DNA from: a virus
Lineage: Duplodnaviria > Heunggongvirae > Uroviricota > Caudoviricetes
Virus record (IMG/VR): IMGVR_UViG_3300032167_000028
DNA: 42,347 nucleotides
Reading direction: 5' to 3' (one strand)
Shown here: positions 20,888 to 27,144 of the stretch, in pieces
Numbering within the stretch: position 1 is the stretch's first letter
How the letters are laid out: every line of letters begins with the position of its first letter
Program-made: the position numbers and the translations under genes
The notes under the pieces: generated by a model
Database searches by the model: none
What the model was told of the DNA's origin: nothing
What the model saw: the letters and a program-made list of their open reading frames with translations, nothing else

Positions 20888-21970
20888 ATGCCAACAATTG
20901 TAAGAAGTGGTGGCGGCGGAATGGATGTTTCTGCCGCAAATGCAACCAGAAGTTAGGTGTTATCTGGAGCTACTTTTTATAGTAATGCAAGTGATGATAT
21001 ACAAACTGGCACCATGAGTAATCATGGTACCAAACAAATTAATGTAGGAGATACTGGAAGTGCTGGATATTATTCTAGTGTTAGTATTAATGCCAGTTCT
21101 TTAGGAAATGCTACTGCTGGTCATGTTTTAAGTAATGCAACTTTCACGAATACCAGTAAAAAAACATAGTCTGGTTCTATTGTCATTAGAAGTGATCCGA
21201 ATGGAACGGTTAGTGTTGGAGGCACTTATAAAAATACAAATGCTGGTTATTATTCTAGTATTACAGTAACTGGTCCTACCTTATCTGGCAATGCCGAGGC
21301 TTCTCATGTTTTAAGTGGAAAATCTTTTTATTCTAATACTGGAACAATGATTAATGGTTCAATGGCAAATTATGGAGCATTAACTGGTTCTGTTACAGTT
21401 GGAGGAACTTATACAAATACTAATGCGGGTTATTATTCCAGTATTAAAGTAACGGGTCCAACATTATCTGGAAATGCGACAACTTCAGATGTTTTAGTTA
21501 ATAAAACTTTCTATTCTACAAGTGGTACTTAGCAAAAAGGTACAATGACCAATCATGGAGCAGTATCTCAGGCAGCACCTTTTACTGGTGGTGCGGGTTA
21601 TTATACTAGTATTACAGTTACCGCGCCTAGCGTTAGCTTAACAGGTAATGCTTCTTCTATAGATGTAGTATATCCGTATACTTTTTATAATACTTCTACA
21701 ACTCGTAGAACCGGTTCTTTTAACTATTGGTATGATCAAGGATATATTATAACAACAAGTTGGTCTTGTAAAACCCTTTCGTTTACACCTGTATATTATG
21801 GTGCTTCTATTAATGAAAATGAGGATGGAGATAGTACAGCAGGATCAGGTTTTGGCGGTTATCATAAAAAAACTAAATGTTATGTTAAAGGTAATGTAAT
21901 TTATTGGTGTCATGCGGGCACTAGTAAAACCCACTGGGGCTGTGTAGTTGCTATTGGGGCGGTAGATTAA
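20888..21970 (+). CDS. Tail fibre-like protein with internal repeats, 360 aa, 3 in-frame TAG
   Basis: ATG 20888 after GGAG. TAG at 20954, 21167 and 21530; TAA at 21968-21970. Repeated unit GNAxxxxVLxxxTFY...GTMxNxG...AGYYSSI. Last gene before the terminator. Confidence 0.7.
20936..21720 (+). repeat. About 4.5 imperfect repeats of roughly 55-63 aa in the tail fibre gene
   Basis: Recurring (G)NAT/E..(H/D/Q)VL..(T/S)F(Y) and AGYY(S/T)S(I/V) motifs. Copies 3 and 4 are close even at DNA level (gttggagg.acttata.aaatac.aatgc.ggttattattc.agtatta). Confidence 0.85.
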
Positions 21971-21999
21971 AAGAGGGAGCTTAGGCTCCCTCTTTTTTT
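21969..21999. terminator. Bidirectional intrinsic terminator at the convergence of the two arms
   Basis: AAAAGAGGGAGC-TTAG-GCTCCCTCTTTT perfect 12-bp inverted repeat with T-tracts on both strands. Confidence 0.9.
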
Positions 22000-22952
22000 G
22001 TTAGAATTTTTAAAAAGTCCATAAATCCAATATTTGGAATATTTTCTACAAAACCACCTGTTAAATTCCAAGCTTTCTACCAATCTTCTTGAGTAAAATT
22101 AAGCCAATATTTATCTAAAAAGTTCCAATAAATTTCATTTATTATTTTGTTTATATCTGCCAAATATTTCTATGCTTCAACCATAATATACATATGATTA
22201 TAATCAAAATATAATCGTATTACTCGTTCAGGTAAAATTTTTTCAATCTTTTCCTCTTTAACTATATTATTATTAATTAGATATTGTAAAAGTTTAAATT
22301 GTTCTTTATAGTTGTTGACAAAATATTCATAATAAACAGCTTCACGTTTTTGATTGGTAAGACTATTTTCATTATTTTTCCATACATATATTGGATATTT
22401 TAGTTTTGCATGTTTTTGTGTTACTAACTAATAAAAAAGATTGAAAGCATTATCTTCTCCATAATAAGTCTCAGGAAAAAGAATATTATATTTTTTAATT
22501 ATATCAGTTTTATATATTTTCCCAAATAGCCATACATCATAATCATCATTAAATTCAAGCGTTTTATCTTCTTTATAAAAAGGAGCAAAAACAAAATCTT
22601 GTGAATCCATTGTTATTGTGGTGTATAACATCTATATAGCCATTGTAGAATAAAAAATATCATCGGCATCAGCAAATATTATATAAGGAATATTTTGTTT
22701 AATAACATATTTTAAACCAATATTTCTTGCCGCGCCTGGACCACTTTGAGCAACCTTCGTTTTTAAAATTACAATATCTAATTTTGAAAATTCGTCATAT
22801 AAAAAGTTGTATAAAGCATTATTATCATTATCGTTAATAATAACGATTTTACATTTTTCGATATAGGTCTAAGCCTAGATAGTACACATTAAATTAGAGA
22901 TATAATCCTAAGCATTGTATGCTGGGATTATTATAGCAATTTCCTTGCTCAT
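21981..22952 (-). CDS. Glycosyltransferase family 2 (GT-A fold), 323 aa, 7 in-frame TAG
   Basis: ATG 22952 with GGAGGA RBS. Motifs IAIIIPAYNA, (TAG)A(TAG)TY at the conserved QT position, IIND, GPGAARNIGL, IIFADADD (DxD), GKIYK and YGED. TAA stop at 21983-21981. Confidence 0.88.
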
Positions 22953-22969
22953 AATTCCTCCAATAAAAT

Positions 22970-22991
22970 AACCGCACATCTCTATGCGGTT
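22970..22991 (-). terminator. Hairpin, possibly a weak terminator, just upstream of the GT2 RBS
   Basis: AACCGCA-(8 nt)-TGCGGTT followed on the - strand by ATTTTATT and then GGAGGA. Confidence 0.5.
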
Positions 22992-22999
22992 TTATATAA

Positions 23000-23383
23000 T
23001 TACTCATCAATGAAATCTTCAATTAAAATCATTTGAGCAGGAGTAAGATCAATCTTTTCAAGCATGGAAAAATTAATCTTAGAACAATTTAATTCAACCT
23101 TCTCTTCAAGGAAAGCCCGCATTTCAGTGACATAATCTTCAATACCTTCTTTCTTAATAATGTAATTACCCTTTTCATCGGTAGTGAAGGTTCCGTCTTC
23201 ATTCTTGGCACCATAGGTATCGAGCATTTTATGTTGAACCACTTCAATAGATTCATATTCTTTATCAACAAGCTTTAACATTTTCAGAATACTAAATGCC
23301 TCACGAGCTGGCATTGAAGTATTAGCAAGTTTCTAAAGAACTGGCTTAATAGTTAAAAGACTTTCAATAGTTGTCGTAATCAC
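23000..23383 (-). CDS. Hypothetical phage protein, 127 aa (possibly DUF1617-like), 1 in-frame TAG
   Basis: GTG 23383 with GGAG RBS overlaps the upstream TGA (GTGA). One TAG (VLQKLANT) joins the N-terminus to the ORF-track fragment. The family resemblance is by eye only. Confidence 0.65.
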
Positions 23384-24126
23384 AGTATTTCGTCTCCCCA
23401 TTCAAATTGTTTTTTTATAGTAGCAACCTTTGGTACAAATTGCTAAGCAAAGTAATAACCCAAACAAATAGCATCCGCTTCATCCTATGTGGCTTTTATA
23501 TGATACATAAGCCGCACATAATTCTACGCCTATTGTTTAGCATTTTCACGCTCTTCTCCAGAACAAATTCCAAGATATGAACGCCAAGTAGAAGAATAAG
23601 CTAACTTGTTGTCGATTTTCTTTTCATAAAGATAATCTAACAATACACCTTGTAAATTAGCTAGCGTCTAAAACATTTTTACATTCTTCTAATACTGAAT
23701 ATTTTCCACACCTACTGCATCAGGACAAGTTTTTTCTATTACAGAATCAACCCATCTTTTTAATTCATTAATGCGGCCGGTTGAATTAGCAAATTCATTG
23801 GTAGTAAAAGTACCATAATCTACTAATTTTTTATCATCAAAAATTGCGTATCCGGTTGTGCCGGTTGCGGCATCAAGAGCAAGAACTCTCATTCTTGTAT
23901 CTTTACCGCGAGCAGGTAATTTATTTCTTGTTACATTTCCATTAGAAAGTTTTACACACTCTTCGCAAATGTGATGCTTACGCCAATTATCATAAGTATC
24001 ACTAACCTAATGCCCCTTTGGACAAATAAAATTCAAAGGGGTTTTTAAGTTTTTATAAGTAGTAGAGATAAGCTACCATCCAGCCGCCTCTACATCTGAC
24101 TAAACAGTATAAATATTAATTGCCAC
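23380..24126 (-). CDS. ruvC: RuvC-like Holliday junction resolvase with an N-terminal zinc-ribbon domain, 248 aa, 9 in-frame TAG
   Basis: RuvC motifs VLALDAATGTTGYA, VGVE and QDEADAICLG are contiguous only if TAG is read as sense. N-terminal CPKGH...CEEC. GTG start overlaps the dUTPase 3' end; TGA stop at 23382-23380. Confidence 0.82.
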
Positions 24127-24931
24127 TAGAACCGAACCCGCCTTCACCGCGATCGGTGTTTCGTTCTACATTATCAACAACGTGATAACGTGCTTTGTAA
24201 CTCTTTTCAAGTCCCATCTGAACAATTCGATCACCAGCTTTAATTTCAACTGGAATATTACTGAAATTGTCAAACAAAACTTTTAACTCACCACGATAAG
24301 TCTCATCAATCGTACCAGGACTATTGGAAAGACGAAGTGGTGTCTTATGACTCATGCCACTACGAGGACGGAAAGAAATCATCCAACCATGAGGGATTGC
24401 TACTCGTAGACCAGTTGGAACCATGACGCCATAACTACCGGGCTGAATAGTCATATCTTCTACTGCATAAACGTCGGCACCCCAATCAGTATCATGAGCA
24501 TAAGTAGGAAGTTTAGCATTTGGATGACAAAGTTCAACAGCAACATTGAAAATATCACGATTAGTGATCTTATTAATTGCGGTTAAGATGTAAGCTTCAA
24601 TGAGAGACATAAACTCGTCACAGAACTCACACTTATTAGGCTGGTCTTTATACTTTTCCTTAATCTCTTCTATTACACCAGAAAAGAGTTCAACCGTATG
24701 AGATAGTTCCTGAACATATACATCTAATGTAAATCCATTCTTATCTCCTTCAATTAGAAGCTGATCAATTGCTTGTTCTGCTTCAGGGCCTGAATAAGCT
24801 TTAGCGATACTATTGAGTAGCTCTACTTTCATGTCGCCAAAAAGCTCGTCATCCGTATCTTCAAAGATTTTAAGAAGTTCATTCTTAAAACCTTCAATTG
24901 CCTTTAAATTAGTATCAATTACATTATCCAT
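24116..24931 (-). CDS. dut: Trimeric dUTPase with an acidic helical N-terminal extension of about 125 aa
   Basis: Motifs GADVYA, PTGL, RPRSG, SPGTIDETYRGE, GDRIVQ and RGEGGFGSSG. No TAG. Confidence 0.92.
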   Translation of the reverse strand: MDNVIDTNLKAIEGFKNELLKIFEDTDDELFGDMKVELLNSIAKAYSGPEAEQAIDQLLIEGDKNGFTLDVYVQELSHTVELFSGVIEEIKEKYKDQPNKCEFCDEFMSLIEAYILTAINKITNRDIFNVAVELCHPNAKLPTYAHDTDWGADVYAVEDMTIQPGSYGVMVPTGLRVAIPHGWMISFRPRSGMSHKTPLRLSNSPGTIDETYRGELKVLFDNFSNIPVEIKAGDRIVQMGLEKSYKARYHVVDNVERNTDRGEGGFGSSGN

Positions 24932-24933
24932 TA

Positions 24934-25131
24934 TTACACCTCATAGGACATTTCAATAGTAACAACATACCACATATCTACGATCTCGCCCTTAGACTTC
25001 CTAGTCTTAACAGTATATCCGCCTTTGGTTACGGTAAAACCGCCCTTGTTCTTATATTCTTCGATCATAGAAATTGCTTCATTTTCATCAGTAACTTTCC
25101 AGACCTTAGTTTCCCTCATCAGTTCGACCAT
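24934..25131 (-). CDS. Small hypothetical phage protein, 65 aa
   Basis: Packed between neighbours with an overlapping start. TAA stop, no TAG. Confidence 0.75.
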   Translation of the reverse strand: MVELMRETKVWKVTDENEAISMIEEYKNKGGFTVTKGGYTVKTRKSKGEIVDMWYVVTIEMSYEV

Positions 25132-25495
25132 TTTCGTTATTCTCCTTTTTAAATTCTTTTTCTTTTTCTGCTGCTTTTACTTTTAGATTTTCATAAAGTG
25201 CTTTATATAAATCTTGTCTAAACTGTGGATTCTGTTTAGCATAATTTTCAGTTTCTTGGAACATTTGTCCCAAAGCTCTCAAACCACGCTTGCGGCCTTT
25301 TGCATTCATCATTCGACGACGTTCTTTTCGATTAGGGATCCAAACATCATCGGGCCGCTCACCTGGCTTAGCTGGCTCCCATAGATCCTGTGGCTTAGTA
25401 TTTTCATCAATTACTGCTTTTGTATAAGTAATTTCCTTACCATCAATTATAACTGTTAAAGGCTCAGTATTTACTTCTGTATTAATTTCACTCAT
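25106..25495 (-). CDS. Hypothetical protein with an Arg-rich PNRKERRR motif, 129 aa
   Basis: ATG 25495 has a GGAGG RBS and is preferred over the ORF-track start at 25522. TAA stop, no TAG. Confidence 0.75.
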   Translation of the reverse strand: MSEINTEVNTEPLTVIIDGKEITYTKAVIDENTKPQDLWEPAKPGERPDDVWIPNRKERRRMMNAKGRKRGLRALGQMFQETENYAKQNPQFRQDLYKALYENLKVKAAEKEKEFKKENNENGRTDEGN

Positions 25496-25496
25496 A

Positions 25497-25889
25497 TTAA
25501 GCCTCCAGCGACATAAAGTCAATTACAACAGGAACACCAAAACGTTCTGTTAGAAGTTCCTCTAAAATAGTACGGGCATTATCGACACAAAGATTTATGC
25601 GGCGACTCGCAATTTTAAAATCTTCATTGAAGATATCCTTTAGACCTAAATAAGAAACTTCGGTTTCTTTAGCTTCACTTGCGTGCTTCATACCTGCAGA
25701 ACGATAAAAATCATCTTCTGTAGAAAGAATTGTATCTCGTCTAAAAACTGCTTGACGAATTGTTTCAGTTGTTTTACCTTGACCCGCTTCGGCAATAAGA
25801 TATACAACAGGATCTTCACGGTCTCCCTTTGGACAATGAACACAGATTCTTTCTCTTACATCGAGTGGAACAATTTGATTAACTAACAT
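25497..25889 (-). CDS. Small P-loop NTPase-like protein, 130 aa
   Basis: Walker A-like AEAGQGKT and Walker B-like INLCVDN. GGAGG RBS; TAA stop. Confidence 0.65.
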   Translation of the reverse strand: MLVNQIVPLDVRERICVHCPKGDREDPVVYLIAEAGQGKTTETIRQAVFRRDTILSTEDDFYRSAGMKHASEAKETEVSYLGLKDIFNEDFKIASRRINLCVDNARTILEELLTERFGVPVVIDFMSLEA

Positions 25890-25890
25890 A

Positions 25891-26847
25891 TTAACCTCCG
25901 GCCTTTTGATTATATCCTAATTTTTCAGTAGAGAAGAAATTGATATAATACTTTTCACGTTCATTTAGTTGCTCTTTAGAACATTCTTCAATAAGTTCAA
26001 AAGTAAAATTCCAAATTCCTTCATCGCGCATTGCTTGATGAACTCGCTAGTCCGCGATTGTACTTATACCAACTGAACTTTTTATATGGTCAGTTAAACG
26101 TTTTCTTACAGAAGTCGAACGACCAATATATGCTTGTTTTGTTCTATCATTGGTAATTTTATAAATACCGCTACATTCGCGGCTTGGAAGAATATAATCA
26201 AGCATTTCATTAGCTTTCTTTTGGATATATTCCGACCAAATTAATTTATATAAAATATCGGGATTTCGTAACTCTTCTGCTACATGATTAAGTAAATAAT
26301 TAATGTCAGAACGATCAGAAGAAGATATTTGAATATGACGGTTTAAATCTTTTTCTTCATCACTCTATGAGCGTTGTACTGTTTCAATAACAGAAAGATA
26401 TTTACTTCTTTCACTCTCTAGCTTTGCGTCCATTTGAGCAAGTTCATTTTTTACTTCTTCATTTTTTAGACGCATAAGAGTCTGATGTTGAGTATTTAAT
26501 TCTTGAATCTTTTCAGCAAACTCTTCACAAATTTTTGCTTTTTCAATTTCATTACTATCTCGTACTGTTTGCAACGAAGCTGATAAAGCTTTTAATTCCG
26601 CGGTTTTAGCAGAAATATCTGTTTCAAGTCTTGACAACTCTTCTTGCTTATCAAGATTAAGAGTTTGATACATTGATACCGTAGTTAGGGCATCCGCGAG
26701 ATCTCGCTCAACTTCAGTTAAAGTATCCTGTCGATTCCGAATTTTCTGGTTTAAATTTTGTAAAGTTGTTGTTTTATTATACTTTACGCGATAATAAAAT
26801 GTTGCTGCAATAACTATAATACATAAAATTAAAAGTATTATTCCCAT
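25891..26847 (-). CDS. Membrane-anchored coiled-coil protein with a C-terminal GIY-YIG endonuclease domain, 318 aa, 2 in-frame TAG
   Basis: Hydrophobic N-terminus MGIILLILCIIVIAATFYY and a long heptad region, then after TAG (26367-26365) SGIYKITN...AYIGRS...RKRLTDH...LNEREKYYI...GYNQ. TAATG overlap at the start; the TAA stop lies 1 nt before the next ATG. Confidence 0.85.
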
Positions 26848-27044
26848 TACTTTTTCACCTTTACATATAGCCCGCAGGCACAACTTTCACCCTTTCCGAC
26901 ATTTTCTCGAAAATCTTTACAGGGACATTCGTAGTCAGGATTACCACGTTGTTCGCTATGACTGGGGCAGTATCCATCATTATCTCGCAGAGCAGATTGA
27001 ATAAAATTTACAGTATCTTTGTCACTACTGTATTTGTACTTCAT
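26847..27044 (-). CDS. Ferredoxin:thioredoxin reductase catalytic (beta) subunit-like protein, 65 aa, with variant motifs
   Basis: DGYCPS...ECPCKDF...SCACGLY matches the CPC/CPC/CHC layout of FTR-c. ATG 27044 with GGAG RBS. Confidence 0.75.
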   Translation of the reverse strand: MKYKYSSDKDTVNFIQSALRDNDGYCPSHSEQRGNPDYECPCKDFRENVGKGESCACGLYVKVKK

Positions 27045-27079
27045 AAGGACTCTCCTATATTCCTTTATTCTATACATAT

Positions 27080-27108
27080 ATTATACTTTAAAAAAAATAA
27101 AAAGTCAA
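27080..27108 (-). promoter_or_regulatory. SigmaA/sigma70-type promoter for the FTR-to-GT2 gene run
   Basis: TTGACT-17 nt-TATAAT on the - strand. Confidence 0.85.
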
Positions 27109-27112
27109 ATTT

Positions 27113-27144
27113 CAAAAAAAATAAGAGAGCCGAAGCTCTCTTAT
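27113..27144 (-). terminator. Intrinsic terminator after nrdG
   Basis: ATAAGAGAGC-TTCG-GCTCTCTTAT (cUUCGg tetraloop) followed by a T run on the - strand. Confidence 0.88.

Follow-up and report, generated by a model that had tools for sequence, protein, structure and literature searches.

We describe here a nine-gene operon of a phage in which in-frame TAG codons are distributed gene by gene. The operon lies on the minus strand, at positions 21981-27108, of a 42,347-nucleotide (nt) stretch of DNA, referred to as the window, which is the reverse complement of bases 23840-66186 of the 174,462-bp IMG/VR virus record IMGVR_UViG_3300032167_000028. In transcription order, the nine genes contain 0, 2, 0, 0, 0, 0, 9, 1 and 7 TAG codons, and the TAG-free gene for a dUTPase overlaps the gene for a RuvC-type resolvase, which has nine of them. 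Judged by the sequences of related phages, the single-gene resolution of this pattern is real. In the explanation that we favour, and that we hold as a whole with moderate confidence, one transcript of the host type would carry the operon, the genes needed late would bear the TAG load of late genes, and their products would be completed after the tRNA(CUA) of the phage has become active. The gating is, in our view, a genuine consequence of the sequence; co-transcription, the delay itself and its usefulness are what we infer from it.

Conservation of the TAG pattern in related phages

A search with the dUTPase yielded 3043 homologues, nine of which came with DNA context and covered a range from 92% down to 43% dUTPase identity. 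The window and these nine relatives are referred to as the ten genomes. A further 14 IMG/VR loci were found by dUTPase alignment, which brings the number of related loci to 23 altogether. A blastn search of GenBank phages with the region gave no match, and neither did scans of IMG/VR with the RuvC or the dUTPase protein alone. In all nine relatives the gene order is NrdD, NrdG, a terminator and promoter, an FTR-like gene (ferredoxin-thioredoxin reductase beta-like, except in L008), a gene for a GIY-YIG protein with transmembrane and coiled-coil parts, a P-loop gene, two small genes, dUTPase, RuvC, a gene of 127 amino acids (aa), none to three genes for family-2 glycosyltransferases (GT2), and the convergent late genes. 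TAG codons and glutamine codons were counted for each gene over the ten genomes, with the following results (TAG/Gln codons):

NrdD, 0/205
NrdG, 0/43
353-aa protein, 0/91
FTR-like, 0/13
GIY-YIG, 36/238
P-loop, 1/36
138-aa protein, 3/55
65-aa protein, 0/12
dUTPase, 0/93
RuvC, 70/150
127-aa protein, 3/51
GT2, 17/39
late genes, 274/763

NrdD, NrdG and the 353-aa protein pooled thus have no TAG in 339 glutamine codons. The 14 additional IMG/VR loci show the same picture. Their dUTPase genes are TAG-free as well (0/127, or 0/220 overall), their small genes including the 127-aa gene have no TAG at all, and their TAG/Gln ratios range from 2/10 to 10/16 in RuvC and from 2/17 to 15/32 in GIY-YIG. Every recoded relative has 2-10 TAG codons in RuvC, and 1-15 are present in GIY-YIG in 20 relatives; in two nearly unrecoded relatives the ratio for RuvC is 0/10. 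If dUTPase took up TAG at the late-gene rate of each genome, the probability of finding it TAG-free would be about 1e-23, with the 15 recoded loci taken as independent.

The initial annotation of the window had cautioned that part of the pattern could be due to chance, as several TAG-free genes have few glutamine codons. For the window alone this caution is justified, since the ratio of TAG to CAA/CAG of 11:22 in the two nucleases differs only modestly from that of 1:19 in the six small neighbours (Fisher p = 0.02). Across the relatives, however, chance is excluded. The comparison of orthologues that had been proposed as a check came out positive: TAG is present in RuvC and GIY-YIG of every recoded relative and absent throughout from dUTPase, the FTR-like gene and the 65-aa gene. 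A rule for nucleases as such does not emerge, given the TAG load of GT2 and the TAG-free RecJ-like and LAGLIDADG genes described below.

The positions of the TAG codons turn over, while the pattern at the level of the gene is kept. At the same columns of codon alignments TAG is exchanged with CAA or CAG, even between the window and the relative with 92% identity. Because of this exchange at shared columns, the pattern is taken to be maintained and not merely inherited. We also considered that a block of late, TAG-rich composition might simply begin at ruvC. This was ruled out, as the next gene is TAG-poor (3/51, and no TAG in the 14 loci) and CAG-rich.

Reading of TAG as glutamine

The 174,462-bp record is rated complete by CheckV, and the DNA runs that contain the window derive from gut or faecal metagenomes of cattle and other animals. 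On the plus strand of the window, positions 3-21970 are occupied by giant tail and virion genes with TAG at 21-59% of their glutamine codons; the gene for a 4022-aa virion protein has 64 TAG codons. The minus-strand block encodes an AAA_24 protein, a DnaB-like helicase, a RecJ-like exonuclease, a polymerase of the DNA polymerase III (Pol III) alpha type, NrdD and NrdG, and from 42345 down to 27141 no TAG occurs in its genes among about 190 glutamine codons. None of the genes in the window ends with TAG. Long conserved open reading frames (ORFs) of the window, and their orthologues in the 23 related loci, are broken by TAG only and never by TAA or TGA.

In the orthologue alignments, the partners in columns with TAG are Q (113), K (73), E (65) and S (34), and in conserved columns TAG swaps with CAA and CAG alone. 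The genome has 35 tRNA genes, one of them for a tRNA(CUA), whose acceptor stem UGGGGA is the same as that of the phage tRNA-Gln(UUG). Because the alignments favour glutamine and tRNA(CUA) shares the acceptor stem of tRNA-Gln, TAG is, on this evidence, read as glutamine in this phage. Serine was considered as well, on account of a neighbouring tRNA-Ser(CGA) gene and the long extra arm of tRNA(CUA), and was ruled out by the alignments and the Gln-like acceptor stem. All four properties expected of a TAG-to-Gln recoded phage (genetic code 15) whose early genes are compatible with the standard code were found. Genes for release factors and for GlnRS or GluRS were not detected in the whole genome.

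The tRNA(CUA) gene is located outside the window, at 165322-165419 of the genome (L016:19322-19419). With 98 nt the tRNA is unusual, its long extra arm resembling that of a class II tRNA. The gene adjoins that for tRNA-Ser(CGA) and lies just 3' of a TAG-containing SpoIID/SH3 lysis gene. It has a weaker, sigma-A-like promoter, TTGATT-17-TATAAT with a TG extension, 64 nt upstream.

Organization of the operon

The nine genes are tightly packed between a terminator and promoter at one end and a bidirectional terminator at the other. All coordinates and TAG counts of the initial annotation were reproduced. In the order of transcription, the features are:

27121..27144, minus strand, intrinsic terminator that closes the upstream NrdD-NrdG operon
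27080..27108, minus strand, promoter of the sigma-A type, TTGACT-17-TATAAT, with 11/12 consensus matches
26847..27044, minus strand, FTR-like protein, 65 aa, PF02943 at 1.3e-5, 0 TAG
25891..26847, minus strand, membrane-anchored coiled-coil GIY-YIG nuclease, 318 aa, 2 TAG
25497..25889, minus strand, P-loop-like protein, 130 aa, 0 TAG
25106..25522, minus strand, hypothetical protein of up to 138 aa with uncertain start, 0 TAG
24934..25131, minus strand, hypothetical protein, 65 aa, 0 TAG and no glutamine codon
24116..24931, minus strand, two-domain dUTPase, 271 aa, PF00692 at 1.5e-22, 0 TAG
23380..24126, minus strand, RuvC-type resolvase with an N-terminal Zn-ribbon-like domain, 248 aa, 9 TAG
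23000..23401, minus strand, phrog_1401/DUF1617-like protein, likely 127 aa from GTG 23383, 1 TAG
22970..22991, minus strand, hairpin within the 47-nt gap preceding GT2; its T tract is weak, and it may be a partial terminator or mark the joint of a cassette insertion
21981..22979, minus strand, family-2 glycosyltransferase (GT2), PF00535 at 3.5e-16, 7 TAG
21969..21996, no strand assigned, bidirectional terminator common to the operon and the convergent late tail-gene arm

A ribosome-binding site (RBS), AGGAGAG, is found 5' of the ATG of the FTR-like gene at 27044. The stop of this gene and the start of GIY-YIG coincide as TAATG at 26847, the GTG of RuvC at 24126 overlaps the end of dUTPase by 11 nt, and GTG 23383 of the phrog_1401-type gene overlaps the RuvC stop as GTGA. 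The only real spacer in the operon is the 47-nt gap before GT2 that holds the weak hairpin. In 10/10 genomes the start of RuvC overlaps or abuts the stop of dUTPase. Of the nine relatives with DNA context, all but L008, where the FTR-like gene is not recognisable, have the block of terminator, promoter and RBS directly 5' of this gene. The pairing of the terminator stem is kept in the relatives by compensatory changes, and the -35 box, the T-rich spacer and the -10 box of the promoter are conserved in eight of them. Sigma-A-like matches within the operon are not more frequent than in shuffled sequence.

RNA data were available as assembled contigs, from which starts, strand and levels cannot be read and whose uncovered parts are uninformative. 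From the metatranscriptome of a close relative, a contig of 2 kb bridges dUTPase and RuvC and matches 23116-25114, with DNA carry-over being possible. Contigs also end about 15 nt from the predicted start, although such contigs prove neither a start nor a single transcript. Taken from the layout and the conserved signals, the nine genes would form one transcription unit behind the promoter at 27108.

In the genome as a whole, 61 near-consensus sigma-A promoters (at least 11/12 consensus positions) were found. Nearly all of them are located on the strand that carries the non-late genes and none in the late arm (genome 44-85 kb). Real genes directly 3' of these promoters are TAG-free, and the few TAG-bearing ORFs downstream of them are short calls of a crude gene map, mostly in tRNA regions. 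The assignment of the operon promoter to the class used by host RNA polymerase before late expression, as made in the initial annotation, is supported by this distribution. As the late arm lacks the sigma-A consensus, its promoters have to be of another form, and a late promoter embedded in the operon is therefore possible. Inspection of the intergenic regions of the late arm for a late-promoter motif gave nothing usable.

At the head of the late arm, a minus-strand ORF of 441 aa (genome 83389-84714; L012:17389-18714) has four TAG codons. Its C-terminal part gives PHROG matches to 'sigma factor' (1.3e-13) and to endonuclease VII/HNH, and no Pfam match. Should its product be a transcription factor for the late genes, their transcription would itself hinge on the switch of code.

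The gated nucleases and the glycosyltransferase

The RuvC-type resolvase was identified by PF02075 (2.7e-8, 34.3 bits against a cut-off of 22.2) and by PHROG matches to phrog_159 (6e-17) and phrog_827 (2e-16). Its start at GTG 24126 was set by alignment to the N-terminus MAINIYTVQ of the relatives. For the four acidic residues of the catalytic site (Asp, Glu, Asp and Asp), the candidate motifs LALDAATG, GVENIQ and DEADAI were assigned by eye from the translation. TAG is found at codons 9, 18, 40, 146, 153, 199, 201, 214 and 228. That the first of these is codon 9 (24102-24100) and that another directly precedes DEADA agrees with what had been noted before, as does the placement of the TAG codons in GIY-YIG before and inside the nuclease domain. 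Residues 1-80 of RuvC (window 23890-24126) contain a Zn-ribbon-like CxxGH...CxxC motif that is conserved in all relatives, and the N-terminal 80 aa or so match parts of HNH and homing-endonuclease PHROGs. This N-terminal domain is probably a DNA-binding module. A sequence search of the PDB with RuvC returned only spurious matches to repeat proteins.

In the GIY-YIG gene (PF01541, 31.6 bits against a cut-off of 22.6; motifs GIYKI, AYIGRS, RKRL, FELIEE and INFF in the translation), TAG occurs at codon 161 (26367-26365), before the nuclease domain, and at codon 267 (26049-26047), inside it. The truncated early product in the window would be a membrane-anchored coiled coil of 160 aa. A designed scheme with two products is unlikely, because the first TAG is found at codons 16-52 in most relatives. 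We also considered that GIY-YIG might be a recently acquired mobile homing endonuclease. This was ruled out, since the gene occupies the same slot in 20/23 related loci, namely those that cover it, and is a core gene; true homing endonuclease genes, by contrast, sit inside NrdD, PolC and dUTPase of the relatives.

The GT2 gene, which likely starts at ATG 22952 after GGAGGA, forms an accessory cassette that closes the operon. Its copy number in the relatives varies from 0 to 3, with none in the three nearest ones, one in L004 (11947-12903) and three in L009 (11911-14756), and each copy has 2-8 TAG codons.

Proposed delay in the completion of late-needed proteins and competing explanations

According to the favoured explanation, all nine genes would be carried by one sigma-A transcript of the host type. 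Purifying selection would keep TAG out of the genes needed immediately, i.e. dUTPase, the FTR-like gene and, upstream, the ribonucleotide reductase and replication genes. The products of RuvC, GT2 and, less strongly, GIY-YIG would be needed only once the suppressor has accumulated, and by drift these genes would have reached a TAG load like that of the late structural genes. In such a drift TAG would accumulate because, in this AT-rich genome, CAG decays to TAG and TAG is barred from decaying further to TAA. Ribosomes would stop at ruvC codon 9 until TAG is decoded, and translation of GIY-YIG would stop at codon 161 in the window and within codons 16-52 in most relatives, so that the full-length endonucleases would emerge after their operon neighbours. 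The tRNA(CUA) would probably be made by the host polymerase, with the delay arising from its accumulation. Since the start of the next gene overlaps the RuvC stop, the TAG codons of RuvC could furthermore gate that gene indirectly by translational coupling.

Several points weigh against this explanation. The RNA contigs show neither transcript starts nor strand and hence prove neither a single transcript nor its timing. A late promoter within coding sequence is possible, as late promoters of the phage are of an unrecognised form. The P-loop, 138-aa and 127-aa genes have 7 TAG in 142 glutamine codons, compared to 0/432 in the reference genes including dUTPase (p = 5e-5). Because of these occasional TAG codons in small genes, the operon may be expressed with suppression already partly on. 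The sigma-A-like promoter of tRNA(CUA) might make the delay short, and as dUTPase is CAG-rich in most genomes, its avoidance of TAG could in part reflect codon optimality.

The initial annotation had proposed a translational safety switch, in the strong version of which TAG would be positively selected in DNA-cutting enzymes because their early production would be toxic. We consider such selection unlikely. In its favour, no recoded relative has fewer than two TAG codons in RuvC or fewer than one in GIY-YIG, codon 9 or 10 of RuvC is TAG in 8/10 genomes, most homing endonucleases lying among TAG-free early genes are TAG-bearing (3/9 here and 4/10, 5/8, 4/10 and 4/13 in relatives), and phage T4 actively delays endonuclease VII and I-TevI. 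However, the TAG share of RuvC, 0.39 pooled, is not significantly above that of the late genes, 0.30 pooled (Wilcoxon p = 0.06), and it tracks the late-gene share of each genome (Spearman 0.53, p = 0.03), while the share of GIY-YIG is significantly below that of the late genes (p = 0.002). The conserved glutamine codon 9 of RuvC is TAG in 5/10 genomes, which equals the average of the gene, and the positions turn over freely. Moreover, GT2 does not cut DNA and is equally TAG-rich, and the LAGLIDADG genes in dUTPase (0/16, 0/19 and 0/15) as well as the RecJ-like gene (0/15) are TAG-free. Overall, the pattern fits tolerance of TAG in a gene that is needed late; with a RuvC share at the level of the late genes, selection for a safety switch is not demonstrated.

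The absence of any spacer speaks against separate late transcription, in which ruvC (with GT2) and GIY-YIG would be transcribed mainly from embedded, unrecognised late promoters and the sigma-A promoter would be irrelevant to them. RuvC overlaps or abuts dUTPase in the ten genomes and GIY-YIG overlaps the FTR-like gene, internal promoter-like matches occur at the frequency of shuffled sequence, and the TAG-poor gene after RuvC, CAG-rich in relatives, argues against a late-like block up to the end of the operon; the metatranscriptome contig across the dUTPase/RuvC junction points weakly in the same direction. On the other hand, T4 late promoters stand directly 5' of I-TevI and gene 49 inside early units, a late arm free of the sigma-A consensus means that the form of its promoters is invisible to our scan, and at about 24100 the GC content shifts towards that of the late arm, from 0.36 down to 0.29. 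Separate promoters had been named beforehand as a finding that would speak against gating: the overlapping genes leave no intergenic room for them, but an embedded late promoter would have a form that we do not recognise. On balance, we regard this alternative as distinctly improbable. Very improbable, in our view, is an effect of expression level and codon optimality in which timing plays no part, with abundant proteins avoiding the costly TAG and favouring CAG and with low-abundance nucleases and glycosyltransferases drifting to TAG and CAA. Three head-module genes by the portal, although necessarily late, have no TAG and mostly CAG, and dUTPase uses mostly CAG in the window and most relatives, as this idea would predict. 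Yet the dUTPase of L008, with 12 CAA to 2 CAG, still has no TAG, in none of the genomes do the CAA-rich genes for NrdG and the 353-aa protein contain TAG, and the 64 TAG codons of the 4022-aa virion protein indicate that late suppression is near-complete, so that TAG can be no strong brake on dosage late in infection.

Other nucleases and TAG-free late genes

TAG was also counted in other nuclease genes of the phage family. The RecJ-like exonuclease mentioned above belongs to the replication block, and an I-TevI-like gene is likewise TAG-free (0/12). Endonucleases inserted in NrdD or PolC of relatives are mostly TAG-bearing (4/10, 5/8, 4/10, 4/13 and 2/6), and three TAG codons are present in an HNH gene of the tRNA region. 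When the genome was scanned with the Pfam profiles HNH and HNH_3, only sub-threshold matches were obtained. A homing-endonuclease-like gene with HNH/DUF2726 matches (genome 20160-20786; L011:160-786) encodes 208 aa with three TAG in nine glutamine codons. It is located between TAG-free gyrB-like and gyrA-like topoisomerase genes, and a promoter with 12/12 consensus matches, which drives the gyrA-like gene, follows right after it.

An insert of 1.4 kb that encodes a LAGLIDADG protein interrupts dUTPase in three relatives (L029:8588-9673, L030:8540-9658 and L031:8570-9601). The LAGLIDADG gene is TAG-free, unlike most other homing endonucleases of the phage family, and its product may be needed early, e.g. 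as a maturase, for dUTPase production. Inserts of the GIY-YIG, HNH_3, LAGLIDADG or NUMOD type split the NrdD and Pol III alpha genes of other relatives (L005, L006, L007, L008, L019, L023 and L025); both genes are uninterrupted in the window.

Between NrdG and the operon promoter, two distant relatives have a gene of the formate/nitrite transporter family (L007:7226-7795 and L008:6994-7611). Formate is the reductant of the anaerobic ribonucleotide reductase, and a transporter gene beside NrdD and NrdG is unusual.

The three TAG-free head-module genes by the portal (genome 76087-79121; L012:10087-13121) encode proteins of 348, 183 and 473 aa, whereas the portal, the terminase and all tail genes are TAG-bearing. 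The 348-aa protein matches only phrog_4088, a family with no assigned function. Abundant virion proteins seem to avoid TAG.

Comparison with known systems and implications

The expectation that timing at the level of single genes would be finer than anything known was not upheld, as Borges et al. (10.1101/2021.08.26.457843) already report an endonuclease within an early gene that is recoded by preference, with the same reasoning, and a bias in recoded stop use at the level of gene families. Like the phage described there, the present one has a standard-code host and a suppressor tRNA of its own, replication genes that lack the recoded stop, and structural and lysis genes that are full of it. 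It differs in that TAG is read as Gln and not TGA as Trp. Furthermore, gating affects conserved core genes of an operon (RuvC and the membrane-anchored GIY-YIG) instead of an intron ORF that is mobile. Each of these genes has a start that overlaps the stop of a TAG-free neighbour, and the tRNA is not accompanied by a gene for a release factor or an aminoacyl-tRNA synthetase.

In T4, the best-studied case and one in which the resolvase acts late, gene 49 (endonuclease VII), e, soc and I-TevI are not translated from early polycistronic mRNAs because their RBS is hidden (PMC3014915, PMC2988022). Both phages would thus have a resolvase and endonucleases on transcripts of the early type that are held back until late, which in T4 serves to order translation on polycistronic messages. 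The T4 block resides in an RNA hairpin that contains the RBS, which is freed on the shorter transcripts from late promoters, whereas in the present phage elongation would be blocked at TAG and the block lifted in trans by a tRNA, so that no late promoter would be required. The T4 mechanism has been demonstrated experimentally; ours is a proposal from sequence. It is conceivable, but to us doubtful, that the amber codons are a selected single-gene timer that has replaced the RBS hairpin and late promoter of the T4 type and has been recruited repeatedly for resolvases of unrelated fold and for homing endonucleases.

Overall, the amber-gated resolvase locus provides a further instance of a timing strategy that has already been published for phages; the mechanism as such is not new. 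The locus adds a conserved case with solid statistics, the gated genes being core members of an operon with overlapping start and stop codons, together with a direct comparison in which the TAG load of the resolvase is not significantly above that of the late genes. As a caution, gene calling with the standard code misses nucleases and glycosyltransferases within otherwise normal operons. With their overlapping stop and start codons and opposite, stable TAG states (0/220 in dUTPase compared to roughly 40% in ruvC), dUTPase and ruvC, whose junction is situated deep within a unit that has one conserved promoter of the host type, provide an unusually clean natural test bed for a clock that is based on a code change. 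If the delay is true, the TAG density of a gene could be read as a trace, left by evolution, of the time at which its product is required, and would help in the annotation of unknown genes in uncultured recoded phages.

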